Shown here: piece after piece, positions 11,274 to 64,000 of the stretch
Layout: every line of letters starts with the position of its first letter
How positions within the stretch are numbered: position 1 is the stretch's first letter
Origin: Armatimonadota bacterium
GTDB lineage: Bacteria > Armatimonadota > HRBIN16
Assembly: GCA_963677485.1 (NCBI GenBank)
Contig: OY781964.1
Coordinates: 3,680,001 to 3,744,000, forward strand
Direction of reading: 5' to 3'
Length of the DNA: 64,000 nt
Translations under genes and position numbers: made by a program
Notes under the pieces: model-generated
Database searches by the model: none
Told to the model about the DNA's origin: nothing
The model's input: the letters and a program-made list of their open reading frames with translations, nothing else

Positions 11274-11277
11274 CGCA

Positions 11278-32301: not shown

Positions 32302-32424
32302 CCTATGGGGAATACAACTCCGGTACGCATTTGTTCAGGTCTTTGATTGTGCATGTGTAAGCAGGTCTGCCCAGGCGTGCTGGTGAACATATCCATAACC
32401 AACCACACAATGAGGAAACCCGTG

Positions 32425-45702: not shown

Positions 45703-46509
45703 TTGGATTCATCAAGTATATTACACTTACCAAAAATTACGCACGCCAGAGAACATCAGGGCGGGGTTCTGGCGGCATACATTGACCGCGAATACGTATT
45801 CCAGCACTGCGTGAGCGGCGAGGCGAAGTTCCGGCTGCGGGACAGCTTGTACCGGGTGACACCAGGCACCACCTTTCTGATGCCTCCGCAGTTGCCCCAT
45901 GCGCTGCACTTTATGACTGAGGTGAGGGACTACCGGTATCTGGTGGTGCATTTCTCTTTGCCGGAGGATTCCACCCTGCTGAAGCCGTTCCCTATGGTGG
46001 TATCACTGACCGGTGATGATGCCGATGCGGTATCCAACTCCCTGAAGGAGATAGTCTCAGAATGGCAGGCCGGGCAGCCAGGATATCGGCTAGTCACCTC
46101 AGGTCTGCTGGTGAAGGCACTGGGCATTTTCTGGCGTCACCGCGGCGCCGATGTTCTTTCGGATGTGGTCGTGTCCAGTGCCTGGCAGGATGTCGAACGC
46201 GCCATCAGTTGGATGCATCAACACTACATGGAACCATTGAGCGTGGATCGTATGGGGCAAGTGGCTGGTCTATCACCTGCCTACTTCTGTAAGGCGTTCA
46301 AGGAGTACACCGGCTGCAGCCCACACCGCTACCTCACCAACATCAGGGTCAGCAAGGCCACCCAGCTATTAACGACCACCGAGTTGAGCTGTACGCAGGT
46401 CGCCGAGCGTGTTGGGATCCCGACGGTGGCCGCCTTCAGCCGAGTATTCCATCGCGTGATGGGGGTTTCGCCAACCCAGTGGGTTCAGGACAACTATCCC
46501 AATAGTTGA
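45703..46509 (+). CDS. AraC family regulator (cupin + HTH)
   Basis: LSPAYFCKAFKEYTG, FSRVFHRVMGVSP. Confidence 0.92.
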   Translation: MDSSSILHLPKITHAREHQGGVLAAYIDREYVFQHCVSGEAKFRLRDSLYRVTPGTTFLMPPQLPHALHFMTEVRDYRYLVVHFSLPEDSTLLKPFPMVVSLTGDDADAVSNSLKEIVSEWQAGQPGYRLVTSGLLVKALGIFWRHRGADVLSDVVVSSAWQDVERAISWMHQHYMEPLSVDRMGQVAGLSPAYFCKAFKEYTGCSPHRYLTNIRVSKATQLLTTTELSCTQVAERVGIPTVAAFSRVFHRVMGVSPTQWVQDNYPNS

Positions 46510-49600: not shown

Positions 49601-49775
49601 GCCTGTGGTCAGGAAAGTCGCAGTGCCTGACGATGGCTGGCTGCCGATTGAGGTAGATATTTCCCGTTATTCAGGCGCCCCTGTGATGCTGAGCCTGGTG
49701 ACCGACCCCAACGGGTTCGCGGACTACGACTGGGCAGTGTGGGGTGACATACGGCTGCAGACAGTTTGGAAATAA
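46617..49775 (+). CDS. DUF6259-like glycoside hydrolase with two NPCBM-like modules
   Basis: GWRKDGYDRNYP, GFRVMPH, ALYIDQ; two HPP...(D/T)GVxF modules; C-terminal YDWAVW. Confidence 0.7.
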   Translation: MKASSDTATTQIETKDVTVGLRQGAVVAITNRLTSESYLMANSSEVYARVHSTANKLPSSQAPGECSVNRQGSVATLRSIWSDGSKASTVCEVDPKSGEVMITQQASTPSGGVYGVSWELGDVPDSMSILVPGDSGQCLGAESAFETRSFDYPMQWEAPYVVILGSKGGVVIRAEDTKYQFKTLHVEHRPGFFRLRFESRNQAPFDKLNSVKSVNWKITAFRGPWQVGAAIYNNWAAKAYKMVSLERKSAAWAKDIQFIVTMDTNVDLLQPLAKQVNPRQTILYLPGWRKDGYDRNYPTYEAIDGFELFVQAAHKFGFRVMPHCNYFGCDPLNPLFAQFEKYQIRDAFTKEPQWWIWKAEPIIKFAYINPASKAWRKLLVSRLVELVKRYKVDALYIDQTLCIYNDGAGLVDGMNCIQGNIALIRELTQALPNVPVGGEGLNEVTCLYESFAQRHELSIDFTAGTWDTKKLDQAHPISSSLLLQYTRMYGYLGMPNPNNNPGLFTAWRTGYERYGIIPTLPWPSIDQLEKPSGLVAQVFDEARFYQKYKPTADFSPTWGKSDRFVYKLSDGRRAAYRQDTGSSFQVDAPGGSQTLWRRITGVSELPTTGSIPSWYAYDEKKIIGLDPVQTYYWSPKPRDMKALHIASLPSQELTLAGIGVHEQFARFQMKYAKETIRLMDCARQAQSGVKLYNGLVKHYPGVGFSDECGGAMIQSGSALYMHPPWKPSKGGPQTTKAGTGYGDTFVTYNLELPAAKSIIIEAMVNLRAGQDPGSDGVLFRIEASAGGKRLSAETFDDTTVPKPLRLDISSLSGQKVELTLTLNPGPAGNFTCDGAMVNDPVIKVTAEMAGAVEVVCPQAVKHLLSASGQSKLTRVSVDRYRIESTFPNTITMVYSDPLAITGDTNLLTTPYMACQRSSTGMESPPGGWSSVGVGEVSCLNVPKQSLSAHPPADGKTIVDYWLNVPSGKARVIGYVGLRDGSKSTGVAFEVWVNGQPVVRKVAVPDDGWLPIEVDISRYSGAPVMLSLVTDPNGFADYDWAVWGDIRLQTVWK

Positions 49776-49814: not shown

Positions 49815-49903
49815 GTCGTCGGGGCGTCCCTTGTGGGCGCCCTACTCGATTGTTCATTCGATAATTCATGTTTTAGGGCGCCCACAAGGGACGCCCCTAC
49901 GAC
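49815..49903. repeat. GTAG-class REP doublet (REPIN)
   Basis: 30-bp inverted arms GTCGT(C/A)GGGGCGTCCCTTGTGGGCGCCCTA with one mismatch and a 29-bp spacer. Confidence 0.9.
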
Positions 49904-49949
49904 TAGTTGCTTACAAGGAGACATCACACATCGAAGGCGTGACTGGTTC

Positions 49950-51890
49950 ATGAGTATCCAAGAGCCAAAACATAGCGGCGCATCCTGGCGGTCGATCATC
50001 ATCGGTCTGCTTCTACTGCCGCTCAACGCGCTGTGGATGGCGTTGATGGAAGTGAAGACGAACTCGCTGGACACCACGGCGGTCAGCTTGTTCTTTCATG
50101 TGATCTTCATGCTCTTGCTGATCACCGCCCTCAACGCGCTGGTTCGCCGTATGAAACCAGGTTGGGGGTTGTGTCAGGGGGAGCTGCTGACCATCTATTC
50201 AATGGTCAGCGTGGGCAGTGCGATGGGCGGACGGGATATGCTGACCAATCTGCTGCCGAACCTGACCCATCCTTTCTGGTATGACACCACGGCCAACGGG
50301 TATGCACAGCTCATGAAGCACATCCCCGACTGGATGGCTGTGCGTGATAAGGACATCCTGCATGGTTATTTCTACGGCGACACGGTGTTGAGCCGCCGAA
50401 TCCTTCTAGCCTGGCTGCCTGTGATGCTGTTCTGGGTGGGCATGTTGACGGTGCTGAGTTACATGATGCTCTGCCTCAATGCCGTGGTGCGAAAACACTG
50501 GGTTGAAGATGAGAAGCTGAGCTTCCCGCTGATGAACATCCCACTCGCCATCACAGCCAGCCCATCGCCGTTTCGCAGTAAGGTGTTCCTGCTGGGTTTC
50601 ATCATACCCGTGCTCATACAGTCACTGAATTACCTGGCTTACTGGTTCCCTAGTCTGCCGACCTGCCATCTGAAGCTGCAGAATATCGGGCAATATTTCA
50701 CCACACCTCCCTGGAATGGGCTGGGCTGGTTTCCCATCGCGTTCTTTCCGTTTGCCATCGGGATCGCCTACTTTCTGCCGGTCGACCTGCTGTTTGGCTG
50801 CTGGTTCTTCTATCTGCTGCGGAAGCTGATCGATGTGGGCTGCGTGGCCTGGGGGCTGCATGACCCTGGTGCTTCGGCTGCTACGCTGGCGTTGCCATAT
50901 GTGAAGGAGCAGGGGACGGGTGCATGGCTGGGACTGGTGCTGACGATGTTATGGTTGTCACGAACCACCTGGCTGGCGGTGCTCAAGCAGGCGATACATC
51001 CCCAGACAGGCGGTGACGACCCCCAGGCTGGTATGAGCTATCGAGCGGCTTTGCTGGGTATGTTAGTGGGTAGTGTGGTCTTGACGCTGATGTTTGTGAA
51101 GGCCGGCATGAGCTGGTGGCTGCCCCCGCTCTATTTTGCGTTCTATTTCATCCTCAGCATCGGGGTCACCAGGGTTCGTGCTGAGCTTGGACCGCCCGCA
51201 CATGAGCTGAACTGGGTCAACCCCGAAAACTTCCTGGTCACCTTCTTCGGTACGACCGCTCTGGGCACACAGAACCTCACGCTGCTTTCGATGCTGTTTT
51301 GGTTCAACCGAGGATACAGATGCCACCAGATGCCGCACATGCTGGAAGCCTCGTATATGGGCGGCAAGCAGAACTGGAACATGCGCCGGCTGCTGGTCGC
51401 GATGATGCTGGCGGCTGTAGTGGGCAGTATCTGCTGTATACTGGCTTTTCTATGGGTATTCTACAGTAACGGCGAAGCCACCCCGCGCATTCAGTGCTAT
51501 TCGTATGGCATAGGGCTGGAGGCCTATTCGCGGTTGTCGGACTGGAACGCCAACCCGCGAGGTCCCAGCGGAATACGCATTGTGTTCATTGGTATCGGCG
51601 CGGCGATCACGCTGCTGCTGGGTATGGCGCGGGGGATGCTCTCCTGGTGGCCGTTCCCTCCGCTGGCGTATGCACTGGCGAACAGTTACGCGCTGGAGTA
51701 TTTCTGGACCACCATGCTGATCGGTTGGGTGATCAAGCTGGTGACGTTGAAGGTGGGCGGAAACAAGCTCTACAAGCAGTTTCAGCCGTTCTTCCTGGGG
51801 CTGATCATCGGCGACTATGTGGTCGCCAGTGCCTGGGGGCTACTGGGTGCCATCACCGGCCTGCCCACCTACCGGACGTTTATATTTTGA
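49950..51890 (+). CDS. Polytopic membrane protein, DUF6785/DUF6784 (OPT-like putative transporter)
   Basis: GELLTIYSM, WVEDEKLSFPL, RVRAELG, WWPFPP, PFFLGLIIG; many transmembrane helices. Confidence 0.8.
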   Translation: MSIQEPKHSGASWRSIIIGLLLLPLNALWMALMEVKTNSLDTTAVSLFFHVIFMLLLITALNALVRRMKPGWGLCQGELLTIYSMVSVGSAMGGRDMLTNLLPNLTHPFWYDTTANGYAQLMKHIPDWMAVRDKDILHGYFYGDTVLSRRILLAWLPVMLFWVGMLTVLSYMMLCLNAVVRKHWVEDEKLSFPLMNIPLAITASPSPFRSKVFLLGFIIPVLIQSLNYLAYWFPSLPTCHLKLQNIGQYFTTPPWNGLGWFPIAFFPFAIGIAYFLPVDLLFGCWFFYLLRKLIDVGCVAWGLHDPGASAATLALPYVKEQGTGAWLGLVLTMLWLSRTTWLAVLKQAIHPQTGGDDPQAGMSYRAALLGMLVGSVVLTLMFVKAGMSWWLPPLYFAFYFILSIGVTRVRAELGPPAHELNWVNPENFLVTFFGTTALGTQNLTLLSMLFWFNRGYRCHQMPHMLEASYMGGKQNWNMRRLLVAMMLAAVVGSICCILAFLWVFYSNGEATPRIQCYSYGIGLEAYSRLSDWNANPRGPSGIRIVFIGIGAAITLLLGMARGMLSWWPFPPLAYALANSYALEYFWTTMLIGWVIKLVTLKVGGNKLYKQFQPFFLGLIIGDYVVASAWGLLGAITGLPTYRTFIF

Positions 51891-51923: not shown

Positions 51924-53087
51924 TTGGTTGATCTCATCATCGCTAATGGAACCTTAGTCATGCCTGATCGTGAACCTTGCTCAGGTGATGTTGGTATTCA
52001 ACACGGCTTGATACACTTTTTGGTTGATGTTGAAAGCCAGGGCAAGACGACCATCGACGCAACCGGCTGTTACGTGCTGCCAGGCATTATCGACATCCAC
52101 ACCCACGGCATCGGCTATGAATCGTCCGCGTCGGAGAGTTTGCATGAGTATGCCAAACTGGAGGCATCGCACGGCTGCACCACTTTTTACCCCACGCTGT
52201 TTGGCCCACCTGAAGAGAGCGCTGAGCATATGCGCCGGCACCGGCGCAACACGAACGAACTGGCTGAGCTTCCGCAGGTCGGAGGGTTCCGGCTGGAGTC
52301 ACCCTATCTGGGATTCACCGGAGCAGGAATCTCGCGCGACCTGGCTCCTATCAGCAAGGCAGTTACCAATGAGCTTCTTGACGCAGGTGGGGGACACATC
52401 AAGATATGGGACATTTCGCCAGAACTTGAGGGTGCCGCGGGATTGATATCGGAGCTTTCCTCGATGGGGATCATCTGCAGCCTGGCGCACATGCGCGCCA
52501 CGATCGACCAGGCGAGGGCCGCCATCGACGCGGGAGCGCAACTGGTGACGCATCTGTTCTGCACCTTTGAAGTGCCGGAAATGATCGATCCGGGTGTCTA
52601 CCCGGCCGGGGTCACCGATCTGTTTCTGGTGGACGACAGGGTGGCCTGTGAGATCATCGCCGATGGCACGCACGTGAACCCCATGCTGATTGAGATGACG
52701 CTGCGATGCAAGCCAGATGATATGACGGTGTTTGTAACCGACAGTAACTATGGGGCGGGTCTGCCATCGGGCCGATACGACCTGCCTGGCGGCTGGGGGC
52801 TGGCGGCCATCGATGGTCCCAACAACGGTGTCCGGCTGGTGGAACGCGAGATGGGTCTTGCCGGGAGTGCCTTAACACCGATCGATTCGCTTCGGAACTG
52901 CGTGCAAATGCTGGGTAAGGATTTAGGCATGGCCTCCCGCCTGTGTTCGGCTAATCCCGCCCGACTGCTGGGCTTGAACAAAGGTCGTTTGGCCGTGGGC
53001 TGGGATGCCGATTTGATTGTGCTGGATGAGCAACTGGAGCTGATGTATACCATTGTGCGGGGGAAGGTGGCTTTTTCAAGGAGTTAG
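51924..53087 (+). CDS. NagA-like amidohydrolase (divergent N-acetylhexosamine deacetylase family)
   Basis: PGIIDIHTHG, GCTTFYPT, LESPY, THLF, IIADGTH, VTDS, LAGS, SANPA, GWDAD. Confidence 0.88.
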   Translation: MVDLIIANGTLVMPDREPCSGDVGIQHGLIHFLVDVESQGKTTIDATGCYVLPGIIDIHTHGIGYESSASESLHEYAKLEASHGCTTFYPTLFGPPEESAEHMRRHRRNTNELAELPQVGGFRLESPYLGFTGAGISRDLAPISKAVTNELLDAGGGHIKIWDISPELEGAAGLISELSSMGIICSLAHMRATIDQARAAIDAGAQLVTHLFCTFEVPEMIDPGVYPAGVTDLFLVDDRVACEIIADGTHVNPMLIEMTLRCKPDDMTVFVTDSNYGAGLPSGRYDLPGGWGLAAIDGPNNGVRLVEREMGLAGSALTPIDSLRNCVQMLGKDLGMASRLCSANPARLLGLNKGRLAVGWDADLIVLDEQLELMYTIVRGKVAFSRS

Positions 53088-53164
53088 GAGAAGAGGAGAA
53101 TAGGAAAAGGCGACCAGTATCTGCAACCGCGTCCTACTCGTCCTACTCATCATACCTGTCCTAC
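53078..53164. repeat. 9-nt periodic inverted repeat, family F copy 2
   Basis: AAGGAGTTAGGAG...GTCCTACTC GTCCTACTC ATCATACCT GTCCTAC. Confidence 0.75.
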
Positions 53165-53196
53165 GGCGTCACCCGCGAAATGCCGCTCCGTTGCCC

Positions 53197-53246
53197 TTGA
53201 CACCACTTAATCATATATGTATACTCATTATAATGAGTATACATAT
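53197..53246 (+). promoter_or_regulatory. gntR operon promoter with a perfect 32-bp palindromic operator candidate
   Basis: TTGACA-17 nt-TATACT; ATATGTATACTCATTA|TAATGAGTATACATAT at 53215-53246. Confidence 0.85.
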
Positions 53247-53263
53247 TCGGCAAGGACGGCAGA

Positions 53264-54022
53264 ATGAGCGTAGGTTCCAGTTCCCCGTTATATAACGAAA
53301 TATACGAATCCTTGAAGGGCAAGATACTCTCAGGCCACTACACGCCTGGGGATTCGCTGCCCTCTGAACCAAAGCTGAAACTGGAATATGGTGTCAGCAC
53401 GATCACAATCCGCAGGGCGATTCGCGAGCTCTGCCTGGATGGGCTGGTGGAATCGCGGCAGGGGATGGGCAATTTCGTGCGGGACAGCAGCACGGGCTCG
53501 GTCGTGGTCGGGATGTCCAGCTTTACGTCTGATGTTGTTGGTGGACGGCTGCGCCTGATCCGATCTCTTCTGACAGACGAGATGACCACTGCGCCTGTGG
53601 ATATCGCCAATCAGTTGAATGTGCCGGTCGGATCCATGCTGCGTCGTCTGGTGCGGTTGGACTATGAGGGCAACACACCGCTATCTCTCGATGAGGTGTA
53701 TATCCCACCTGATATCGGCTCGTGTATTAACCACGAGATTGCCGGATCGCCGGTGTTCATGCATCTGTGGCAGAAGGAATCTGGCCTGGAGCTGGTGAGC
53801 ACACAATACCAAATCTGGACCGAAACCGCTTCGGAAATGGACATTCAATATCTGAAGATGCAGCCAGAGTGCCCAGTGTTGATCACCACCGAGTTGGTAT
53901 ATGATATCAACAGCCGAGCCTGTGCCTGGATCATCAGCCGGTATCGAGGAGACAGAGGCCGCCTGTCTGGCACGGTGATGTTAGTTCAAAATCGATCCGA
54001 TATAAAAGTGATTGGTGAATAA
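53264..54022 (+). CDS. GntR family regulator (HutC/UTRA subfamily)
   Basis: PLY...LPSE...YGVSTITIRRA...QGMGNFV plus a UTRA-like C-terminus. Confidence 0.92.
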   Translation: MSVGSSSPLYNEIYESLKGKILSGHYTPGDSLPSEPKLKLEYGVSTITIRRAIRELCLDGLVESRQGMGNFVRDSSTGSVVVGMSSFTSDVVGGRLRLIRSLLTDEMTTAPVDIANQLNVPVGSMLRRLVRLDYEGNTPLSLDEVYIPPDIGSCINHEIAGSPVFMHLWQKESGLELVSTQYQIWTETASEMDIQYLKMQPECPVLITTELVYDINSRACAWIISRYRGDRGRLSGTVMLVQNRSDIKVIGE

Positions 54023-54023
54023 G

Positions 54024-55307
54024 ATGCTTGCAGGAACCGCAAAACAAGATATCACACCCAAAGATGCTGTTTGGATGGAGGGCATGATCCGTGCTCATCG
54101 CTCAGATGGCGTTCATGATGCGCTCACCGCCCGCGCACTGTATGTGGCCGACGGTGAAATGCAGACCGCCATTATCACGCTTGATGTGTGCGCCATCCAA
54201 GATAGTGACGCCTCTGCCATCCGTCATGAGATCGAAGCGCAGCTAGGGATACCATCAGCCAACATCATCATCGCTGCCAGCCACACCCATTCCGGACCAG
54301 CGACCATCGGGTTTTTCAGTGATGGTGAACCCGAATACGTGCAGTGGCTGGGTAAGCAAGTCGTGCTGGCGGTCGCGGAGGCCAAGGCGAGTGCGGTGCC
54401 TGCCCTGACCGGATGTGCCAGCGGAAGTGAGACCACCATCAGCCACTACCGCCGCTTCCGCTCCGATGCCGGCCAGATCGTGATGATCTGGGAGCAGGAC
54501 CCCTCCCTGGGTGGCATGACGGTCATGGGAGAAGCGGACACGGAGGTGGGTGTACTCAAATTCGTGAAGGCATCCAATCCGGAGAAAACCATCGGATTGT
54601 TATTCAACTATGCAGGGCACCCGAATGTGATGAGCGGGGATAACTACAGCATCAGCGCCGACTACGCGGGTGCAGCCTCCCGCATACTCGAAGAGAAGCT
54701 AAGCTGCATCTCGATGTTTACCAACGGCGCCCAGGGTTCCGTCGACATCGACAACTGGGCCTGGCGAGACTGGCAAGGTGTCGAGGTTCTGGGATCGGCA
54801 CTGGCGCAGGTGGTCTCGGATGTCTCATGTGGTGTTGAAGTCTCATCACAGGAACTGCGCATCTCGCGGGTGGCTTATTCACTGCCTCGCCGCACGATCT
54901 CTGAAGAACAACTCAGGTGGGCTGAGGATATCCTGGCCCAAACCGGTGGCAAGCTGCAGGCCGTGGCCGATGGCGTGGGTGATGACTTCAAGGCATTGCT
55001 ATACAAGCAGACATATGATTTGAGAGATAAAACGGTGGATATCGAGCAGGTATGCATCGTGGTAGGCGACTGCGCGTTTCTCAGCTTCCCCGGCGAGCTC
55101 TTCACTGAAATCGGGCTGGAGATCAAACGCCGAAGCCCGTTCAACAAGACCTACATCATCGACCTGGCCAATGGATATACCGGTTATGTGCCCACCAGCG
55201 CGGCTATTGCGCAGGGTGGTTATGAAGTGGATACCCGTCCCATCAATGCAGATGCAGAGCAGGCCATCATAGACCACTCGCTGTATCTTCTCAACCAACT
55301 GAAATAG
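54024..55307 (+). CDS. Neutral/alkaline ceramidase-like amidohydrolase
   Basis: DITP, HDALTARAL, ASHTHSGP, NYAGHP, ISADY, GAQG, PGELF, ANGYTGYVPT, GGYE. Confidence 0.85.
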   Translation: MLAGTAKQDITPKDAVWMEGMIRAHRSDGVHDALTARALYVADGEMQTAIITLDVCAIQDSDASAIRHEIEAQLGIPSANIIIAASHTHSGPATIGFFSDGEPEYVQWLGKQVVLAVAEAKASAVPALTGCASGSETTISHYRRFRSDAGQIVMIWEQDPSLGGMTVMGEADTEVGVLKFVKASNPEKTIGLLFNYAGHPNVMSGDNYSISADYAGAASRILEEKLSCISMFTNGAQGSVDIDNWAWRDWQGVEVLGSALAQVVSDVSCGVEVSSQELRISRVAYSLPRRTISEEQLRWAEDILAQTGGKLQAVADGVGDDFKALLYKQTYDLRDKTVDIEQVCIVVGDCAFLSFPGELFTEIGLEIKRRSPFNKTYIIDLANGYTGYVPTSAAIAQGGYEVDTRPINADAEQAIIDHSLYLLNQLK

Positions 55308-55317
55308 GGAGAACACC

Positions 55318-56649
55318 ATGTCCGAAAGACTAGCTATCGACGGCGGGACACCAATCCTGCAGAGAAGTGACTTCAAAAACTGGCCGGTCATCACAGATGA
55401 TGACCGCCGGTTCATCAACCAGGTGCTCGATTCCGGGATATTGGCCGGTGGAACGGCCCCTCAGGTATCCAACCTGGAGAAGGAGTGGGCGGCATACATC
55501 GGCTCAAACCACTGCCTGACCACCTGCAGCGGTACCGCCGCACTGCATATGGCTCTGGCGGCACTGGGTGTTGGTCCGGGCGATGAGGTGATCACCTCGG
55601 CATTCACATTCCTGGCCTCCGCGTCTTGCGCGCTGCATCAGAACGCCATCCCTGTGTTTGTGGATATCGACCCCAAGACCTATTGTATGGACCCCGCCAA
55701 GCTGGAGGCCGCGATCACCGAACGCACGAAAGTGATCATCCCAGTGCATATCCAGGGCTGTCCTGCCGACATGGACCCCATTCTAGCGATCGCGAAGAAA
55801 TATGGCATCCATGTGATCGAAGATGCCTGCCAGGCGCACGGTGCCATGTATAAAGGCAAGATGGTCGGCAACATCGGCGATGTGGGATGCTTCAGCCTGA
55901 ATAACTTCAAGAACCTGTGCGGCGGAGAAGGTGGCCTGTTCAATACTAACGATGAGGACATACTGAACAAGGCGGCGCTCGTGCGTTGCTTTGGTGATGA
56001 AGTGGACGAAGTGAGTCGCAGGCGAAAATACAACGCCTCCATACTTGGCTATATGTATCGCAACCAGGAGCTGCCCGCGGCCCTCACCCGAGGCCAACTG
56101 CTGCACCTGGATGATTCCAATGCGGTGCGTATTCAGAATGCGGAGTATCTGACGCAAGCGCTGAGCAAGATCCCTGGTGTGATCCCGCCTTATTGCCCGG
56201 ATGACTGCAAGCATGTGTATTTCATGTATAACGTGCGGTTCGACCCCAAAGCGGCAGGTGTGGATTGTGAACCCCGGAAGTTCAGGGACGCAGTGGAGAA
56301 GGCCCTCTACAAAGAGGGGCTGTTGCTCGGACAGTGGCAGACCATGCCGGTGCCCGCTCAAGACCTGTTCCAGAGCAAACTCGGGTATGGCGGTTCCGGG
56401 TATCCCTGGAGCATCAACGAGACCAAAGGAATCACATACGACTACAACCCGGACGCCTATCCGGTAGCGCAGAACCTCTGCGATACCTACACCATCGTGC
56501 ATGGCATCCACACCCCCAATGGGCTGGAGCTGATGCAACGGTTTGTGGCCGGCTTCAAGAAGGTGTTTGCTGATCTTGATACGGCTATCGCCCACGCAGA
56601 TGATGCCATCTATCCGGGAGCTGACGGAAAGCTCTACGGAGCGGGCTAA
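55318..56649 (+). CDS. DegT/DnrJ/EryC1/StrS family PLP aminotransferase
   Basis: LAIDGG, SGTAAL, PVFVDID, IEDACQAHGA, FSLNNFKNL, GEGG. Confidence 0.95.
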   Translation: MSERLAIDGGTPILQRSDFKNWPVITDDDRRFINQVLDSGILAGGTAPQVSNLEKEWAAYIGSNHCLTTCSGTAALHMALAALGVGPGDEVITSAFTFLASASCALHQNAIPVFVDIDPKTYCMDPAKLEAAITERTKVIIPVHIQGCPADMDPILAIAKKYGIHVIEDACQAHGAMYKGKMVGNIGDVGCFSLNNFKNLCGGEGGLFNTNDEDILNKAALVRCFGDEVDEVSRRRKYNASILGYMYRNQELPAALTRGQLLHLDDSNAVRIQNAEYLTQALSKIPGVIPPYCPDDCKHVYFMYNVRFDPKAAGVDCEPRKFRDAVEKALYKEGLLLGQWQTMPVPAQDLFQSKLGYGGSGYPWSINETKGITYDYNPDAYPVAQNLCDTYTIVHGIHTPNGLELMQRFVAGFKKVFADLDTAIAHADDAIYPGADGKLYGAG

Positions 56650-56656
56650 CAGATGG

Positions 56657-56690
56657 GCTGTCGAAGGGGCAGTGTTGCCCCTTCGATGGC
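56657..56690. other. Intercistronic stem-loop
   Basis: TCGAAGGGGCA-GTGT-TGCCCCTTCGA with no U tract. Confidence 0.65.
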
Positions 56691-56709
56691 CGTCACATAG
56701 GAGATTTGT

Positions 56710-57738
56710 ATGATAAGCAAGGGACTGTTCGGCAAGAAGTATCTGGATATCCAGCAGCGCACTCAGGAAATCGGGCCGCTTGATGAAGACCATGTGCTGT
56801 TGAAGATCATGGCCTGCGGGGTTTGCGGTACGGATATCAACTTCGTGCGCGACTGGGACGATGATCCGATGGCCCTGGGGCACGAGATATCGGCGGAAGT
56901 GCTGGAGGTCGGCAAGAACGTCACGAGTGTGAAGCCTGGTGACAGCGTGATCGTAGAGGACTGCACGATGTGCGGTGTGTGCGATAACTGCAAGAGTGGG
57001 CACCCCGAATTCTGCCGCAATATGTATGACATGGAGGGGCAGCCCGGCATGGGCGAATATATGTCGGTGCGGTATAACTGCCTCAACAAATATGAGGGGC
57101 TGGACCATGTCTCCGCCTGTTTGACTGAACCCTTGGCGGTCTCCCTCACATCGGTGCTGCATGCCGACATCCCTCTTGGGGGAAGTGTGGTGGTGCTGGG
57201 TAACGGTCCGTTGGGGCTGATGGCCGCTAAACTGGCCAAGCTTAAAGGTGCAGGCTATGTAGCCATCACCGGGCTGACGGCAGATAACGAGCGGGAACTG
57301 GCCAGATTCGCGGTCGCAGACAAATTCGGCTGCGACAAGAACATCCAGGTTGGCAAACAGAGCGTGGAAGATGAGATACTGTCTCGATTCCCAGATGGCG
57401 TGGACAGGGTGATCGTCAGCTCACCGCCTGAAAGCATGTATGACGCCTTCAAGATCATCCACTTCGGTGGGATCATCACCTTCTTTGGCTTGCACTTTGG
57501 TGGTAAGAACATGGTCAATGTGGACATCAACGACATGATCTTCCGAAAGATCACTCTCAAACCGGCATTTGCGGAACCTGCGATCAACTTCCCAATCGCG
57601 AACAGACTGCTAAAGGAGGGGCTGATCGATGCCCGTGATCTAGTCACGACCACCTTCCAAATGGCCGATGCCAAGATTGTGATGGCCGCGATTGTGGATG
57701 GCAGCCAACCTGTCATCAAGGCCGTGATGGTGCCGTGA
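56710..57738 (+). CDS. Zn-dependent medium-chain (polyol/threonine-type) dehydrogenase
   Basis: GVCGTD, GHE, CGVCDNC...C, EP, GNGPLG. Confidence 0.93.
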   Translation: MISKGLFGKKYLDIQQRTQEIGPLDEDHVLLKIMACGVCGTDINFVRDWDDDPMALGHEISAEVLEVGKNVTSVKPGDSVIVEDCTMCGVCDNCKSGHPEFCRNMYDMEGQPGMGEYMSVRYNCLNKYEGLDHVSACLTEPLAVSLTSVLHADIPLGGSVVVLGNGPLGLMAAKLAKLKGAGYVAITGLTADNERELARFAVADKFGCDKNIQVGKQSVEDEILSRFPDGVDRVIVSSPPESMYDAFKIIHFGGIITFFGLHFGGKNMVNVDINDMIFRKITLKPAFAEPAINFPIANRLLKEGLIDARDLVTTTFQMADAKIVMAAIVDGSQPVIKAVMVP

Positions 57739-60590
57739 GAGGCGGCATGACTGTGCTTCGTTTGGTGAATAGAGCCCTTCTATCGGTGATGATCATGTGT
57801 GCCGCGGCATTCCCTGCTGTGGCACAGGCCGTGCTGAACGGCAGCTTCGAGAACGGCACGCCTGGGTATGGTGTGGCGGCTGGATGGAGCAGTTCCTATC
57901 ACTTCCATGCGGGTATCGCCACGCCGGATGGCAAGTCCTGGTTCGATAACGGAGCCACCCCTGATGGCAAGCAGGTCGCATTTATTCAGAGCAACAGTCA
58001 GGCGTCACTCAGCCAGCAGATCACCGGTCTGAAGGCCGGCAGGGTGTACTGGCTGCAGTATAGCGAAAACTCTCGGCAGTCCAGTGCTGTACCGCTGCTC
58101 TTGGTGAGTGTCGGTGAGGTGGTGGTCGACCCCGCCCATGCGGTGCCGTCGATGGGGAAAGCCGGGGTCTTCACCAAGCCATTTGTGAAGCGAGTAGTCA
58201 GTTTTTCGGTACCCTCAGATGGTGACTATGCGCTCACTTTTCAGTCAACCAGCATGTCAGGCGATTCGACGCTGCTGCTGGACAACATCAGCATCGGCGA
58301 AAAACCGGGTGCTGCACCGTCAACGAACCGTCCACCTGCAATGGTACCCGCAACCACGGTGAGGGCTAAGCCAATGAAAGCCTCGAAACCCAGCACTAAG
58401 CAGACTTCGCTTCAGACCCAATTCCACCGGGGACGGCAGTGCCTGGTGTTCTCAAACGGGCTGACCGCGCTATACCTCGACGCCCATGAGTTTACACTGG
58501 TGGACATCATCGATCTGCAGCAGGGCATCAGTTACGTGGTGAAGCCGGGCGGAACCCTGTTCTCCGCGAACTTTAAGTCGGCAGGGCGAACCCTGGTTGC
58601 GAATGGGTCAGGTGCGAAAAAGTATCGCACTGAGTTGGTGAAGAACAAAGCATCCACTGTGCTGCGCTTGAAGTTCACCGGGTGTCCAATTGGCCCAGGC
58701 GGTCTGAGCACTGATGCGGTGATCTCCATTACCCTCCGCACGAATGACCCTCTGCTGAGGTTTGGTCTGGAGTTGAAGAACTTCAAGAAGGCCATGGTCA
58801 GGGAGACTGCGTTCCCCACACTGAGCGGTCTTGGAAGCTCGGTTCCCGGTTCGGATGCCACCGACTACATGGTCGCGCCCGGGTATCCCACCTTCCATCA
58901 TCCCAGGTCAACGTATGATTCTGCTGTGCCGAAGCTAGGGATCGATGCCAGCTCTACGGAGTATCCCGGCGGTATGAGCATGCAGATGCTAAGCTACAGT
59001 GACGGGTTGGGACACGGTGGGCTGTATCTGGCGGCTGAGGATGCCTCCTATTCACGCAAATACTTCGAGAGTAGCGCGACGCCAAAACGGGGATCGTTCA
59101 TGATGAAGGTAGTTCACTACCCCGATGGTAAGCCCTCTCAGACGAAGCGTGTGCTGCCCTACCAGGTCGCCTTTGGGCCTATTCAAGGTGACTGGTATGA
59201 TGCGGGCAAGATATACCGCAAGCAGCTTCTGGCCCAGGGCAAGATCAAGCCGATAGCCCAGCGACACGACATCCCCGACTGGTTCTTGAACACGCACGTT
59301 TGGTACCAGGGGCAGGACTCACTGAATGGGTCGGATCATATGGCGACCCTATCAAAGAGACTTACCGATATCCGCACGGCTCTGGGGATGCCCTACGGCT
59401 TCCATCTCTATCTGTGGTGGAAGGGCAGCACCATGGCGACAGGCTTTCCTGACTACTTCCCGGCCATACCGGGATTCGGCGAAGCCGTCACAGGGTTACG
59501 GGCGAAGGGCGTAGAGTTGATGCCCTACATCGATATGGAGATGTTCGACACCACCATACCGATGTGGAAAGCCGAAAACGCCCAGAAATGGGCCTCACGC
59601 AGTGCCGATGGCAAGCTGAACCCGGTCTATACCGAGATGCGGCCAAATGTGAATATGTGCGAATCGACCGCGTACTGGCAGGACAAGATGGTCTCCTGCA
59701 TGAAGCAGCTTGTCCAGACCTATGGTGTGCGCTCGATCTACCTCGATGAGCTGTACTATCACCCGCCGTTCTGTTTCTCTAAGAACCATCTGCACGAGGA
59801 CATCGGCGGGAGCTACTTGGCTGACGGCTTCCGTAAGATTATCAAACGCGCCAAAGCCGAATGCGGAATCAAGCAGCTTGTGCTGACAGGCGAACACTCC
59901 GGTGAGACTTACGCCGATCTAGTGGCAGGCGGCCTCACCTGGGCCAGCGTGTTTACGGATGTGAAGCCGATCCATGAAGCGATACTGAAGGACTGCTCGA
60001 TCCCATTTGGGCAGATGATGATGAGCACTGACTTGGCGAATATGGACACCTTTGCCGCGAAAATCGGGTGGCAACTGGTGGGTGGACGTCAGTTAGGGTG
60101 GATCAATCTCGACCAAGGCGACCTGCTGGGAGAGCAATTTCAACGGCAGATGGCATTCTTGAAGTCGGCTGCCCAGTGCCGGGCGGCTGCCAAGGACTTC
60201 GTGTTGTTCGGGGAATACCTGCGTCCACCTGATACCTCCTCCAGCGGCATGCACACCGTGGGCTGGAGCCTGGCGCCTATCAACGTGGTCAACCCTGAGA
60301 CAAACCAAGTGGTTGGCTTGCAGACACTTCCCAAAATCATGGGGTCGGCTTACCGGGCAGTGAACGGCGATATCGGCATCGTGCTGGTGAATGTGACCAC
60401 CACGGCGATATCCGCCTCGGTGCCCGTGAATGAGAAGGACTGGGGGCTGCGGGTGGGCAAGCTGTATGAGAGCTCACGATGGGCCAACGGATCGTGGAGT
60501 CTCGCGGGTCAGAAACGGCTGGAGGCCACATTACATGAGAAAATTCCCGCCTATTCGGTGTTGGTGATCCGGCTTCACCGCACGAAGTAG
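57735..60590 (+). CDS. Secreted DUF6259-like glycoside hydrolase with an N-terminal CBM-like domain
   Basis: Signal peptide; NGSFE, GDWYDAGKIYR, FPDYFP, IYLDE, TGE. Confidence 0.75.
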   Translation: MRGGMTVLRLVNRALLSVMIMCAAAFPAVAQAVLNGSFENGTPGYGVAAGWSSSYHFHAGIATPDGKSWFDNGATPDGKQVAFIQSNSQASLSQQITGLKAGRVYWLQYSENSRQSSAVPLLLVSVGEVVVDPAHAVPSMGKAGVFTKPFVKRVVSFSVPSDGDYALTFQSTSMSGDSTLLLDNISIGEKPGAAPSTNRPPAMVPATTVRAKPMKASKPSTKQTSLQTQFHRGRQCLVFSNGLTALYLDAHEFTLVDIIDLQQGISYVVKPGGTLFSANFKSAGRTLVANGSGAKKYRTELVKNKASTVLRLKFTGCPIGPGGLSTDAVISITLRTNDPLLRFGLELKNFKKAMVRETAFPTLSGLGSSVPGSDATDYMVAPGYPTFHHPRSTYDSAVPKLGIDASSTEYPGGMSMQMLSYSDGLGHGGLYLAAEDASYSRKYFESSATPKRGSFMMKVVHYPDGKPSQTKRVLPYQVAFGPIQGDWYDAGKIYRKQLLAQGKIKPIAQRHDIPDWFLNTHVWYQGQDSLNGSDHMATLSKRLTDIRTALGMPYGFHLYLWWKGSTMATGFPDYFPAIPGFGEAVTGLRAKGVELMPYIDMEMFDTTIPMWKAENAQKWASRSADGKLNPVYTEMRPNVNMCESTAYWQDKMVSCMKQLVQTYGVRSIYLDELYYHPPFCFSKNHLHEDIGGSYLADGFRKIIKRAKAECGIKQLVLTGEHSGETYADLVAGGLTWASVFTDVKPIHEAILKDCSIPFGQMMMSTDLANMDTFAAKIGWQLVGGRQLGWINLDQGDLLGEQFQRQMAFLKSAAQCRAAAKDFVLFGEYLRPPDTSSSGMHTVGWSLAPINVVNPETNQVVGLQTLPKIMGSAYRAVNGDIGIVLVNVTTTAISASVPVNEKDWGLRVGKLYESSRWANGSWSLAGQKRLEATLHEKIPAYSVLVIRLHRTK

Positions 60591-63444: not shown

Positions 63445-64000
63445 TGAGTTTAACAATAAACGAAAGACCATCTGGCGCGGGATTAGATATCGCTGGCGTG
63501 CAGCTGACGATGGTACGGTATCCGGCAGGAGCGACGGAGACCGAACGGTTTGCCGCCTCCGAGCTGGCCCGCTATCTGCAGAAGGCCTGCGGGGTCGAGT
63601 TCCGTCTATCGGAGGGCTTACCCGGCGCCGGGGTGCTGTTCGTGAGTGCTTCGATCCCGCCCGGGGTCAGCACCAGGTTCCGCAGAGATGGTTATGACAA
63701 GGCTTTTGTCACCGCAAAGGGTGGCTGCGTCTACCTGGTCGGCGAAAACAAACGGTCTGCGCTGTATGCCGTCTACGACTTCCTGCAGCAATACATCAAG
63801 ATCGAGTTTTTCGGGCCGGACGAATCACATGAGCACATCCCGCCGGTGAGTCACATCACGCTGCCGGATTCACTGAACGCCAAATACGGCTCTGATATGG
63901 AGCTGCGGGATTACTTTACCAGCGTGCCTGAATCGATCGACTTCATGGCGAAGAACCGCGTCAACATCATCACCGTCGGGCAGGACATCGGTGCCGGGCT
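63444..64000 (+). CDS. Partial glycosidase-associated protein (GH20b/GH67-N-like N-terminus, DUF4838-like); runs off the window
   Basis: ATG overlaps the upstream TGA. MSLTINER...FAASELARYLQK...DGY...LYAVYDFL; open to the window end. Confidence 0.75.
   Translation, partial: MSLTINERPSGAGLDIAGVQLTMVRYPAGATETERFAASELARYLQKACGVEFRLSEGLPGAGVLFVSASIPPGVSTRFRRDGYDKAFVTAKGGCVYLVGENKRSALYAVYDFLQQYIKIEFFGPDESHEHIPPVSHITLPDSLNAKYGSDMELRDYFTSVPESIDFMAKNRVNIITVGQDIGAG

Follow-up and report, generated by a model that had tools for sequence, protein, structure and literature searches.

What compound might be processed by two amidases, a DegT aminotransferase and a Zn dehydrogenase that are encoded side by side with a GntR-family regulator? 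This gene set lies at 51924-57738 of a 64,000-nucleotide stretch of an Armatimonadota genome (contig OY781964.1; hereafter, the window), where a preliminary description had proposed a catabolic pathway for an N-acylated amino sugar or aminocyclitol.

Organization of the locus

The open reading frames and domains that we called agree with the coordinates claimed for the set and bear out its gene content, its co-orientation and its flanking DUF6785 and glycosidase-like genes in this genome. The gaps between the five core genes, all on the + strand, range from -11 to 176 nt. An AraC-family regulator gene heads the co-oriented locus, 107 nt upstream of the first glycosidase-like gene. The features are as follows:

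45703-46509, + strand, AraC-family regulator (HTH_18, HTH_AraC and AraC_binding domains)
46617-49775, + strand, glycosidase-like DUF6259 and NPCBM protein (PF19773, 50 bits; NPCBM; weak GHL10)
49833-51890, + strand, DUF6785/DUF6784 membrane protein (PF20581, 494 bits; PF20580, 101 bits)
51924-53087, + strand, NagA-like amidohydrolase (TIGR00221, 186.1 bits)
53197-53225, + strand, sigma-70-like promoter candidate (TTGACA-17-TATACT, 11/12 positions)
53215-53246, no strand assigned, perfect 32-bp palindrome, candidate GntR operator (overlaps the -10 hexamer)
53264-54022, + strand, GntR/HutC-type regulator (PF00392, 69 bits; PF07702 (UTRA), 72 bits)
54012-55307, + strand, ceramidase-fold amidase, CerLike (PF04734 N-terminal domain, 431 aa)
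55318-56649, + strand, DegT aminotransferase (PF01041, 315 bits)
56710-57738, + strand, Zn dehydrogenase, ZnDH (ADH_N and ADH_zinc_N)
57735-60590, + strand, secreted glycosidase-like DUF6259 protein (PF19773, 180 bits; signal-peptide-like N-terminus)
60709-63444, + strand, secreted WbsX/GH99-like protein (PF14307, 127 bits; PF16317, 36 bits; signal peptide)
63441-64000, + strand, 5' part of a DUF4838 glycosidase-like protein (extends beyond the window; 614 codons in the genome)

We found no domain of a nucleotidyltransferase, dehydratase, kinase or NagB in any open reading frame between 45703 and the end of the window, nor in the 16 kb past its 3' end. The lack of NDP-sugar, kinase and nagB genes noted earlier therefore extends beyond the window, and the biosynthetic partners that might have lain just past it are absent from those 16 kb. 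No PTS is linked to the NagA-like gene.

Conservation across genomes

We collected 52 loci using CerLike as bait, so the co-occurrence figures that follow are conditional on CerLike, and related genomes among them are not independent. Conservation of the gene neighborhood, by which the earlier proposal was to be judged, was evident: a DegT orthologue (at least 60% identity, just downstream of CerLike) was present in 30 of the 52 loci, and CerLike, DegT and ZnDH were adjacent and in the same order in 28 of the 52. Because the same gene order is found in 28/52 loci of other genomes, its recurrence far exceeds chance. The loci come from six named phyla (Armatimonadota, Chloroflexota, Verrucomicrobiota, Kiritimatiellota, Latescibacterota and Spirochaetota), between which DegT orthologues are 65-85% identical; median orthologue identities across phyla are 78% for DegT and 72% for ZnDH. 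The distribution is patchy, with a DegT orthologue in only 2 of 41 sampled genomes of the phylum. The NagA-like gene was present in 15 of the 30 DegT-holding loci and a gntR orthologue (at least 40% identity) in 12, while all four enzyme genes occurred together in 14. The cassette and its own repressor are common, almost unchanged, to uncultured glycan-eating bacteria of six phyla. Among the 22 loci that lack a DegT orthologue are CerLike paralogues and short contigs, and in one locus (L059) the NagA-like, GntR and CerLike genes are present without DegT.

No kinase, transporter or NDP-sugar gene was conserved with the core across the baited loci, and in other phyla the core adjoins unrelated genes (TPR protein, PurN-like formyltransferase, sigma-54). 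In five Chloroflexota loci ZnDH is followed by a divergent NagB-like gene; GlcN6P deaminases are the only PDB entries that its profile matches (best E-value 2e-13). Extended loci in other phyla carry DHDPS-family and HpcH aldolases, an SSF transporter, and Gfo/Idh/MocA and SDR oxidoreductases. Three CerLike-DegT pairs exist in this genome, where three of the four PF04734 genes adjoin a DegT paralogue in glycosidase-rich surroundings; across 41 genomes of the phylum, a listed DegT match adjoins at least 13 of the 82 PF04734 genes. Trees of CerLike and DegT from 16 pairs contain the same subfamilies, indicating that the two have diversified together.

The placement between DUF6785 and three glycosidase-like genes, which holds in this genome, was not general: elsewhere the complete context was found only within this genus, in a sister species (L023). 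A distant locus (L045) has a weak WbsX/GH99-like match ~10 kb upstream, and in locus L027 DUF6785 homologues flank a CerLike paralogue without DegT. The glycan-to-monomer part of the scheme proposed below therefore rests on this genus. DUF4838 also adjoins this genome's second DegT-CerLike pair.

The DUF6785/DUF6784 protein, a candidate importer, is polytopic, with about 10-12 hydrophobic segments; the protein atlas points only weakly to OPT-like peptide transporters (score 0.77-0.79). The DUF6259-NPCBM protein has no signal peptide and is probably cytoplasmic. Atlas leads for the secreted DUF6259 protein were to GH129 and GH101 clusters (score 0.89-0.91), with no PDB sequence match, and the WbsX/GH99-like protein weakly matched GH99 endo-alpha-mannosidases in the PDB. 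PF14307, which the latter protein matches, bears the name "Glycosyltransferase WbsX", although the same protein has a GH99 match and a signal peptide as well.

A candidate operator upstream of gntR

HutC-type GntR regulators typically control catabolic operons. The palindrome, which ends 18 nt upstream of gntR, is unique in the window, and none of 100 shuffles gave a match. Its core is also found upstream of gntR in locus L030, and a 38-bp version occupies this position in the sister species, suggesting that it may serve as the operator for the GntR protein, which itself attained no NCBIfam equivalog cut-off. The TTGACA-17-TATACT sequence is the best sigma-70-like match of the region; since promoter-like sites in the region are in total no more numerous than expected from shuffled sequence, we regard it only as a promoter candidate.

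Predicted activities of the enzymes

Similarity to NagA extends over the full length of the NagA-like protein, the sole NagA homologue of this genome, but the protein's TIGR00221 score is below the cut-off of 225.65. Its family preserves the metal ligands and the catalytic Asp, retaining H59, H61, E131, H195, H216, H251 and D273 (E. coli numbering here and below). Asn219 is replaced by D or C in all 16 family members and Arg227 by T, I, V, A or P in 15 of the 16, whereas E. coli NagA and six same-phylum NagAs that score above the cut-off retain Asn and Arg at these positions. According to PMC6016474, this Asn and an invariant Arg hold the 6-phosphate of the substrate in NagA, mutation of the Arg abolishes activity, and unphosphorylated GlcNAc is not a substrate; the two positions were carried over from the mycobacterial enzyme by inference from the conserved NAM...R-x-PG spacing. 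The missing phosphate-binding residues fit a kinase-free route, and we consider the protein a putative deacetylase of an unphosphorylated substrate. In the family to which this genome belongs, the 16 remaining genomes contain no NagA match, and the gene therefore appears to have been acquired along with the cassette.

CerLike covers only the N-terminal catalytic domain of PF04734 (Ceramidase_alk), and its TTG start at 54012 is backed by a conserved N-terminus. The best Foldseek matches of its AF2 model (pLDDT 82, pTM 0.87) are the neutral ceramidases 2zws, 4wgk and 2zxc (TM 0.69-0.70). Residues H91, H93, R147, H203, E362, Y392 and Y404, invariant in the CerLike alignment, line up with the neutral-ceramidase HTHSGP, HP and PGE motifs. 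Neither a signal peptide nor a C-terminal ceramidase domain is present. We take CerLike for a short cytoplasmic Zn amidase with this fold and a putative N-deacylase.

By sequence, DegT is a PLP aminotransferase of a Fic25-like clade, with Lys198 invariant in 26/26. Fic25 (8gyh) is its nearest solved relative (325.6 bits over residues 4-424), the next PDB match scoring 217.8 bits and every other at most 218; no NCBIfam equivalog cut-off was attained. According to PMC11726168, Fic25 aminates a non-nucleotide 5,7-dihydroxy-6-oxo substrate, which supports the earlier suggestion that this DegT enzyme acts on a non-NDP substrate. Sequence likewise places ZnDH among the medium-chain dehydrogenases/reductases of the polyol/threonine-dehydrogenase type, and C39, H58, E59 and E140 are invariant in 21/21.

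Proposed pathway and alternatives

We judge the chances slightly better than even that the cassette is a cytoplasmic, non-phosphorylative route for an N-acetyl amino sugar, which it would deacetylate, transaminate and reduce, with a GntR repressor acting at the 32-bp palindrome as its operator. Most likely, the substrate is an amino sugar that carries no phosphate and loses its N-acetyl and amino groups in a hitherto undescribed way. In this genome, a glycan would be cut outside the cell by the secreted DUF6259 and WbsX/GH99-like proteins, its fragments would be imported via the DUF6785 membrane protein, and the monomer would be freed by the cytoplasmic glycosidase-like proteins (DUF6259-NPCBM and DUF4838). 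CerLike, the NagA-like enzyme without its phosphate site, or both would then take off N-acetyl groups; DegT would pass the amino group thus exposed to a 2-oxo acid, giving a keto sugar, and ZnDH would use NAD(P)H to turn the ketone into an ordinary hydroxyl. Overall, R-NHAc would become R-OH, with the nitrogen retained as an amino acid. The HutC-type GntR protein would sit on the palindrome over its own promoter until released by the sugar or an intermediate. The full-length NagA resemblance, the NagB-like gene, the aldolases and the flanking glycosidase-like genes all point to a sugar, and the presence of two amidases mildly favors a diamino sugar. Why one cassette should hold two amidases is not accounted for by this reading.

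Instead of a pyranose, the substrate could be an N-acyl amine of acyclic or cyclitol type, either an N-acyl 2-amino-1,3-diol (sphingoid-base/ceramide-like or an N-acetyl amino-alditol) or an inosamine, which we consider unlikely. CerLike would deacylate, DegT would convert the 2-amino-1,3-diol to a 1,3-dihydroxy ketone and ZnDH would act on the product. Consistent with this, neutral ceramidases are the sole structural relatives of the CerLike model, Fic25 (PMC11726168) interconverts an acyclic dihydroxy-ketone and a 2-amino-1,3-diol, and ZnDH is nearest to dehydrogenases of acyclic substrates: its top PDB matches are ketose reductase (1e3j), threonine dehydrogenases and arabinitol dehydrogenase, with xylitol and sorbitol dehydrogenases also close. 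However, CerLike lacks the secretion signal and C-terminal domain of a ceramidase, no iol or lipid-handling genes were found in the loci, and the NagA-like and NagB-like genes, HutC regulator, sugar-acid aldolases and glycosidase neighbors would be left unexplained. For a cyclitol, scyllo-inosose-type aminotransferases are the next-best PDB matches of DegT and IolM is the third-best NCBIfam match of ZnDH, but the former reach about 205-218 bits versus 326 for Fic25 and the latter 129 bits against a cut-off of 450, and the aminocyclitol, 2-deoxystreptamine or aminoglycoside-core substrate put forward earlier gains no particular support.

Ectoine catabolism employs a ring-opening hydrolase, an N-acetyl-diaminobutyrate deacetylase, a transaminase, a dehydrogenase and a GntR-type regulator. 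By analogy, our two hydrolases, transaminase, dehydrogenase and GntR-family regulator might degrade a compound other than a carbohydrate, be it an N-acetylated diamine, an N-acetylated amino acid or a cyclic amidine; the core is self-contained in varied genomic contexts, and models for allantoinase, dihydropyrimidinase and hydantoinase also match the NagA-like protein within its first ~90 residues. We find this improbable: the NagA alignment runs the whole length of the protein with the sugar-contacting His251 retained, DegT belongs to a sugar/secondary-metabolite family rather than the diamine-using class III aminotransferases, and the aldolases, NagB-like gene and glycosidases indicate sugars.

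Pairs of a dehydrogenase and a DegT enzyme make 2-deoxystreptamine, kanosamine and Kdo8N. DegT and ZnDH might similarly oxidize and then aminate a free sugar or cyclitol for an envelope component or secondary metabolite, in biosynthesis or salvage, with the amidases as accessories. Most characterized DegT enzymes, including Fic25, are biosynthetic, and the Kdo8N transaminase (5k8b) and NtdA are among the PDB matches of DegT. Even so, this is very doubtful, as the conserved partners are two deacylases and include no acetyltransferase, nucleotidyltransferase, glycosyltransferase cluster, cyclase or exporter, the regulator type is typical of catabolic operons, and so patchy a spread at such identities across six phyla ill suits an envelope function.

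That the NagA-like protein is simply the organism's NagA in an ordinary GlcNAc-6-phosphate pathway, with CerLike, DegT and ZnDH as unrelated neighbors, would agree with its being the only homologue and adjoining a HutC-type regulator like NagR in Bacillus (PMC4333415), but is hardly credible given the subthreshold score, the replaced Asn and Arg that canonical same-phylum NagAs keep, the lack of a linked kinase, PTS or NagB, the 14 loci in several phyla with all four enzymes, and the 16 NagA-free genomes of the same family.

Comparison with known systems

In true NagA an Asn and an Arg hold the 6-phosphate; the NagA-like family has lost both but keeps its catalytic residues. Neutral ceramidases have a C-terminal domain, whereas CerLike corresponds to their catalytic domain alone and has no signal peptide. 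Speaking against the proposed route, Fic25, the closest characterized relative of DegT, is a biosynthetic enzyme whose substrate is acyclic and bound to a carrier protein (PMC11726168), whereas the DegT enzyme of the cassette would act on a free sugar.

Layout of the locus

The genome under study (G000) is a single contig of 5.22 Mb, in which the cassette lies within a run of co-oriented genes separated by gaps of −11 to 176 nt. ORF listing combined with Pfam and NCBIfam scans recovered every gene that a preliminary description of this DNA had named, each in the place assigned to it.

Genes of the co-oriented run (window coordinates)
45703-46509, + strand: AraC regulator, head of the run
46617-49775, + strand: DUF6259-NPCBM protein, cytoplasmic, glycosidase-like
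49833-51890, + strand: DUF6785/DUF6784 membrane protein, candidate importer
51924-53087, + strand: NagA-like amidohydrolase (TIGR00221, 186.1 bits; cut-off 225.65)
53264-54022, + strand: GntR + UTRA regulator of HutC type (PF00392, 69 bits; PF07702, 72 bits)
54012-55307, + strand: CerLike, 431 aa, match to neutral/alkaline ceramidase PF04734 confined to its N-terminal catalytic part
55318-56649, + strand: DegT aminotransferase (PF01041, 315 bits; cut-off 19.8)
56710-57738, + strand: ZnDH, Zn medium-chain dehydrogenase (ADH_N + ADH_zinc_N)
57735-60590, + strand: DUF6259 protein, secreted, glycosidase-like
60709-63444, + strand: WbsX/GH99-like protein, secreted (PF14307 and GH99 matches, signal peptide)
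63441 to 1.3 kb past the window, + strand: DUF4838 protein, cytoplasmic, glycosidase-like

In this genus, the cassette is embedded in a glycan-utilization locus that comprises secreted glycosidase-like proteins (the DUF6259 protein at 57735 and the WbsX-like protein), cytoplasmic ones (the DUF6259-NPCBM and DUF4838 proteins) and a candidate importer. By protein-language-model features, the DUF6259 proteins resembled clusters of the GH129 and GH101 alpha-N-acetylgalactosaminidases (0.89-0.91), which we treat as a lead. The DUF6259 protein matched no PDB sequence, and the WbsX-like protein gave only weak GH99 matches. For DUF6785, an atlas look-up returned only OPT-like leads at 0.77-0.79, below a usable score.

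Domain scans also bore out the earlier claim that the cluster has no nucleotidyltransferase, dehydratase, kinase or nagB gene: kinase, NagB, nucleotidyltransferase, 4,6-dehydratase and acetyltransferase domains were absent from the run, from the other scanned window ORFs and from the 16 kb on the 3' side, and no linked sugar kinase, PTS or NagB was detected at the locus. The reported absence of a glycosyltransferase carries one caveat, the name "Glycosyltransferase WbsX" borne by PF14307; the matching protein is also GH99-like and has a signal peptide.

Several other features of the region were recorded. Divergent from the AraC gene is a 779-aa ORF (43221-45560, - strand) that is hydrophobic at its N-terminus and matches no Pfam family. 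Two melibiase-like proteins, a GH38 alpha-mannosidase and a 1508-aa GH2-like protein are encoded at 9318-14170, 32347-36873 and 40375-42432, and the richness of the remaining window in glycoside hydrolases is consistent with a glycan-degrading lifestyle. A separate cluster directly past the window (L079, G000:C1:3744001-3760000, positions 1499-12878) encodes a RuBisCO-like protein (MtnW-like, below cut-off), an FGGY kinase (rhamnulokinase-like, below cut-off), a xylose-isomerase-like TIM barrel, 2-oxo acid dehydrogenase E1 alpha, E1 beta and E2 subunits, a DeoC aldolase, an SDR, a HAD hydrolase, an RpiR regulator and a ribulose-phosphate-epimerase-family protein, and is followed by a GH106 rhamnosidase gene. 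An antisense ORF of 459 codons (55783-57162, - strand) crosses the DegT/ZnDH junction, and similar antisense ORFs overlie ZnDH in seven other loci; in our judgment, these are by-products of strongly conserved sense genes.

Conservation and spread of the cassette

CerLike was aligned with 19 homologues, and this alignment (A2) was used as bait, with one genome per species, to gather 52 loci from other genomes, in which tblastn searches with the window proteins identified orthologues. In 30 of the 52, CerLike was directly followed by a DegT orthologue sharing at least 60% identity. ZnDH was also present in 28 of these 30, so that the gene neighborhood earlier proposed as one pathway is conserved as CerLike-DegT-ZnDH in 28 of the 52 baited loci; NagA-like was present in 15 of the 30 and all four enzymes in 14. 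In 12 baited loci, GntR had an orthologue with 40% identity or more, and another GntR type (~28% identity) occurred in four Verrucomicrobiota/Kiritimatiellota loci. The positive loci carried the phylum labels Armatimonadota, Chloroflexota, Verrucomicrobiota, Kiritimatiellota, Latescibacterota and Spirochaetota, and median identity to the window proteins was 78% for DegT, 72% for ZnDH, 58% for NagA-like, 51% for GntR and 50% for CerLike. De novo clustering of all 633 ORFs of the 52 loci revealed no additional gene common to most of them, so that the core is self-contained. Of the 22 loci in which a DegT orthologue was missing, some held CerLike paralogues, others were short contigs and the rest were variants; one of these, L059, has NagA-like, GntR and CerLike but not DegT.

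Within the own-phylum sample, the DegT orthologue was present, among the matches listed, only in G000 and its sister genome G001, the next best match being 51% identical. The same two genomes were the only ones of 18 in the family, G000 included, to have any NagA match. This rarity in its own phylum and family, together with 65-85% identity across phyla, points to horizontal spread of the cassette. The DegT family is large: the best 120 listed DegT clusters (90% identity) were all 77-85% identical to the query; the listed clusters came from metagenomes and MAGs only and bore generic names. In one Chloroflexi MAG (L053, 14001-16337), the cassette is directly followed by a gene for a 778-aa fusion of Amidohydro_2 and class-III aminotransferase domains, a further hydrolase-plus-transaminase combination.

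A NagA paralogue with an altered phosphate pocket

The NagA-like protein is the sole NagA homologue in G000, and it falls short of the TIGR00221 equivalog cut-off. An alignment set 16 members of its family beside E. coli NagA and six NagAs from the phylum whose scores exceed the cut-off. None of the 16 has lost a metal ligand, His251 or the catalytic Asp273 (H59, H61, E131, H195, H216, H251 and D273, E. coli numbering). Position 219, an Asn in E. coli NagA, was Asp in 14 members and Cys in two, and position 227 was Thr, Ile, Val, Ala or Pro in 15 of the 16, with loss of the invariant Arg of the R-x-P-G motif and a five-residue insertion after it; Asn219 and Arg227 were kept in all seven canonical NagAs. 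PMC6016474 describes contacts of this Asn and the invariant Arg with the 6-phosphate of the substrate, abolition of activity when the Arg is mutated and inactivity of NagA on unphosphorylated GlcNAc. Since the catalytic residues are retained and the 6-phosphate-binding Asn/Arg pair is lost, the family is of deacetylase type but is without a feature that defines NagA, and its substrate probably lacks a 6-phosphate.

CerLike belongs to a large short-form ceramidase-fold family and pairs with DegT

The AlphaFold model of CerLike (pLDDT 82, pTM 0.87) had the neutral ceramidases 2zws, 4wgk and 2zxc as its only meaningful Foldseek matches (TM 0.69-0.70, 15-18% identity). The invariant residues H91, H93, R147, H203, E362, Y392 and Y404 aligned with the HTHSGP, HP and PGE motifs of the ceramidases, and we take the Zn ligands to be among these positions. 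CerLike is without the C-terminal beta-sandwich domain: its 431 aa match Pfam profile positions 3-231 of 509, and the model corresponds to the catalytic domain. No signal peptide was detected in the protein. The public version (407 aa) starts 24 codons late. A TTG codon at 54012, giving an overlap of 11 nt with the gntR stop, opens a segment (54012-54083) encoding the N-terminal motif AG-AK-DITP; this motif is common to all homologues and lies upstream of the 407-aa version, indicating that the TTG start is correct and the public protein truncated. A profile search of 1.84 billion representatives identified 3369 clusters (50% identity) of the short form at an E-value of 1e-30 or better, mostly of 420-460 aa; the short ceramidase-fold family is large as well as uncharacterized.

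Three of the four PF04734 genes in G000 adjoin a DegT paralogue; the fourth, at G000:C1:1208075, has no DegT neighbor. The two pairs outside the window lie at the following positions.

DegT-CerLike pairs elsewhere in G000
L075 (G000:C1:458000-477999), 9956-12636: pair 2, neighbors GH4, DUF4434 and DUF4838 genes
L076 (G000:C1:1706000-1725999), 8445-11151: pair 3, neighbors DUF2961 and DUF3604 genes

Compared with the window pair, these are 36-39% (DegT) and 23-24% (CerLike) identical. Across the phylum, 33 of 41 genomes have PF04734 genes (82 in total), and at least 13 of the 82 have a co-oriented DegT match within ~2 kb among the matches listed (150 of 312). Trees of 16 CerLike-DegT pairs resolved matching subfamilies for both proteins, and their pairwise identities correlated with r = 0.92 (16 pairs, data that are not independent), indicating that CerLike and DegT diversified together.

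DegT and ZnDH are related to enzymes of non-nucleotide substrates and polyols

The PLP lysine of DegT, K198, aligns with the Fic25 lysine and was invariant in 26 of 26 sequences. DegT stayed below the cut-offs of the NDP-sugar aminotransferase equivalogs PseC, ArnB, WecE, LegC and DesI, with a best score of 225 bits for PseC (cut-off 423.5). We gauged its kinship to BtrR, StsC and NtdA by PDB bit scores as a proxy for phylogeny. The best PDB match was Fic25 (8gyh-8gyj) at 325.6 bits over residues 4-424, a full-length alignment that includes the C-terminal extension, with ~45-50% identity by eye; the next matches, at 217.8 bits or less, were scyllo-inositol and 2-deoxy-scyllo-inosose aminotransferases and perosamine synthases, with NtdA at 140. 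According to PMC11726168, Fic25 aminates carrier-protein-bound 2-amino-5,7-dihydroxy-6-oxoheptanoate, a non-nucleotide ketone with flanking hydroxyls. A literature search on the PDB codes 8GYH, 8GYI and 8GYJ returned only a paper on Serratia SerTA.

For ZnDH, residues C39, H58, E59 and E140 were invariant in 21 of 21 sequences, and the C85/C88/C91 structural cluster is present, so that both the catalytic and the structural zinc site are intact. Its nearest relatives are ketose reductase and the threonine, arabinitol, xylitol and sorbitol dehydrogenases. Among the named equivalogs Tdh, IolM, IdnD and GatD, none was reached (Tdh 140 vs. 380, IolM 129 vs. 450, the rest lower).

Links to sugar metabolism and a divergent NagB-like family

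The gene after ZnDH in five Chloroflexota loci encodes a protein of 310 aa without a Pfam match. Against the PDB, its profile picked out GlcN6P deaminases alone (best E-value 2e-13), marking it as a divergent NagB-like protein. Its G000 orthologue (69% identity) lies 3.4 Mb from the cassette.

NagB-like gene of G000
L087 10424-12141 (G000:C1:359124-360841), - strand: NagB-like protein, profile match to GlcN6P deaminases

This gene overlaps the stop codon of a PIG-L/BshB1-like deacetylase gene and sits beside a GH78-like gene. The divergent family was found in 44 of 44 baited genomes and 27 of 41 relatives, with or without the cassette; canonical NagB was rare in the phylum sample (4 of 41), and the sole PF01182 protein of G000 is Pgl, encoded next to zwf, so that canonical NagB is absent there. 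These phyla may rely on the divergent NagB-like protein for hexosamine deamination.

A role for DegT and ZnDH as substitutes for a missing NagB was tested and dropped, as NagB above the cut-off occurred in 10 of 29 cassette genomes and 10 of 15 CerLike-only genomes; the ubiquity of the divergent family and the low NagB count in the phylum also speak against it.

Extra genes accompany the cassette in Kiritimatiellota, Latescibacterota, Spirochaetota and some Armatimonadota loci. They encode a DHDPS/NanA-family aldolase, an HpcH aldolase, an SSF transporter, Gfo/Idh/MocA and SDR oxidoreductases and a fucose-isomerase-like protein, as well as a pair of small Cys-rich proteins, of no assigned family, next to NagA-like. 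The latter were seen in L039 (19573-20486) as two adjacent proteins of ~155 and ~149 aa with invariant Cys and His. The pair also occurs in L030, L031, L033, L043, L053 and L074, and it stands beside NagA-like in five to seven loci of other phyla. These small proteins had no Pfam, NCBIfam or PDB match (a profile of one of them, c5, searched against the PDB gave nothing meaningful) and no homologue in G000.

A candidate operator upstream of gntR

The only sizeable gap of the locus, 176 nt, separates the NagA-like gene from gntR. It contains the best promoter-like site of the region (53197-53225, 11 of 12 positions matching), with the reservation that the total of promoter-like sites across the region did not exceed the shuffled expectation. 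A perfect 32-bp palindrome at 53215-53246 overlaps the -10 hexamer of this site; it is unique in the window and was matched in none of 100 shuffles. Its core, ACTCATTATAATGAGT, recurs upstream of gntR in another baited locus (L030), and a 38-bp version precedes gntR in a sister species of the same genus (L023), while the Verrucomicrobiota/Kiritimatiellota regulator type has a palindrome of its own. The arrangement fits a candidate operator for an autoregulated HutC-type repressor.

Predicted pathway and alternative explanations

We think it somewhat probable that the genes form a cytoplasmic, kinase-free catabolic cassette for an N-acetyl amino sugar, acting by deacetylation, transamination and reduction. 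An N-acetyl amino sugar would be deacetylated, the freed amine would be transferred to an oxo acid by DegT and the resulting ketone would be reduced by ZnDH. The fullest loci, with two deacylases, DegT and NagB-like amine removers and a NagA paralogue without the phosphate pocket, hint that the substrate could be a di-N-acetylated diamino sugar or a 6-deoxy amino sugar.

A more far-reaching version, which we hold only tentatively and regard as rather unlikely, would make the cassette the core of a horizontally spread pathway that consumes rare N-acetylated amino-deoxy sugars of bacterial cell surfaces. Candidate substrates would be bacillosamine-type 2,4-diacetamido-2,4,6-trideoxyhexoses, including those that the NanA-like aldolase of some loci could free from pseudaminic or legionaminic acids, and 3- and 4-acetamido-6-deoxy sugars. 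CerLike would take off the first acetyl group, DegT and ZnDH would convert that amine to a hydroxyl, the NagA paralogue would take off the second acetyl group and the divergent NagB-like enzyme would finish; the missing phosphate site of the paralogue would suit a substrate without a 6-phosphate and perhaps without a 6-hydroxyl. CerLike-DegT pairs would then be a modular toolkit of at least four subfamilies, with three pairs in G000, each serving one amino sugar. If so, this would be the first catabolic role for the DegT family and a carbohydrate-metabolism function for the large short ceramidase-fold family.

Among the rivals, the one that survives best, although we judge it unlikely, is that the cassette acts on an acyclic or cyclitol N-acyl amine; the ceramidase fold, the kinship to Fic25 and the polyol-dehydrogenase affinities of ZnDH favor it. 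On the cyclitol side, the preliminary description had likened the DegT-dehydrogenase pair to 2-deoxystreptamine synthesis and named aminocyclitols as possible substrates. That link lost ground: an inosose synthase, inositol dehydrogenase, glycosyltransferases and a resistance/export gene were missing from the scanned window ORFs and the 16 kb beyond, and aminocyclitol-pathway genes were absent among the conserved neighbors of the 52 loci.

Action on a non-sugar N-acetyl diamine or cyclic amidine is decidedly improbable in our estimate. It is suggested by ectoine catabolism (doeABDC with EnuR), in which a hydrolase, an N-deacetylase, a transaminase and a dehydrogenase stand under a GntR-superfamily regulator; the pathway logic is shared, but the enzyme families differ at every step and ectoine is no sugar, so the likeness is one of analogy. 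Slightly less credible again is a biosynthetic cassette: the preliminary description had allowed that biosynthetic partner genes might lie just beyond the window, and a domain scan found none in the 16 kb past its 3' end. An ordinary NagA with unrelated neighbors is the weakest explanation and merits very little credence, set beside the lost phosphate-binding pair and the neighbors' recurrence in other phyla.

Returning to the catabolic reading for an N-acetyl amino sugar, none of the enzymes falls outside the known superfamilies, and operons for amino-sugar catabolism under a HutC regulator have precedents. To our knowledge, the well-known routes of amino-sugar catabolism all involve phosphorylation of the sugar and deamination by NagB or AgaS, and we know of no catabolic route for the 3-, 4- or di-amino deoxy sugars of bacterial surfaces. 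A search of the main text of openly available papers returned no route for these sugars; in the same literature, we found no description of the DegT-ceramidase-like cassette, DUF6785, DUF6259 or transaminative amino-sugar catabolism. If correct, the reading would account for the recycling of such sugars by uncultured glycan degraders, with the nitrogen kept as amino acid, and would give functions to three large unannotated groups: the short ceramidase-fold family, the DegT clade and the NagA clade without a phosphate site. Being widespread, highly conserved and unannotated, the cassette merits attention, and the prediction lends itself to a direct test with its four soluble enzymes, putative repressor and candidate operator.

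Comparison with known systems

The closest solved relatives of DegT are Fic25/Vzb9-type enzymes of amino-group-carrier-protein pathways (8gyh-8gyj). Carrier-protein, LysX/LysZ/LysY-type and transketolase-type C2-extension genes were absent from 45703 to the window end and from the other scanned window ORFs; the E1 alpha/beta genes ~10 kb past the window end do carry transketolase-type domains, which is usual for E1 components, and belong to a separate cluster with an E2 gene. The context of the cassette is catabolic, whereas that of Fic25 is secondary-metabolite biosynthesis.

Dehydrogenase-DegT pairs that interconvert alcohol, ketone and amine on non-NDP substrates offer a second parallel. 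The BtrR/NeoA (2-deoxystreptamine), NtdC/NtdA (kanosamine), KdnB/KdnA (Kdo8N) and IdhA/MosB (rhizopine) pairs are biosynthetic, and we know of none that is accompanied by two deacylases or known as a cross-phylum catabolic cassette. BtrR-type, NtdA and KdnA structures were among the PDB matches of DegT at 140-208 bits, far under Fic25.

CerLike shares its catalytic-domain fold and aligned His, His, Glu, Tyr and Arg residues with neutral/alkaline ceramidase (PF04734; 2zws, 4wgk). It differs in length (~430 vs. ~650-690 aa), in its 15-18% identity, in having neither C-terminal domain nor signal peptide and in its sugar-metabolism setting.

The nearest operon-level counterparts are the nag and aga operons, with their NagA deacetylase, NagB or AgaS deaminase and NagC or NagR regulator, which are likewise catabolic amino-sugar operons with a NagA-related deacetylase and a HutC-type GntR regulator, and in which the acetyl group leaves first and the amino group second, the order predicted for the cassette. 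Unlike them, the cassette lacks a kinase, a PTS and a linked NagB, and its NagA paralogue is without the 6-phosphate-binding Asn/Arg. In addition, it has a second amidase, of ceramidase fold, and its predicted PLP-dependent transamination followed by reduction would take the place of the isomerizing deamination of nag/aga.
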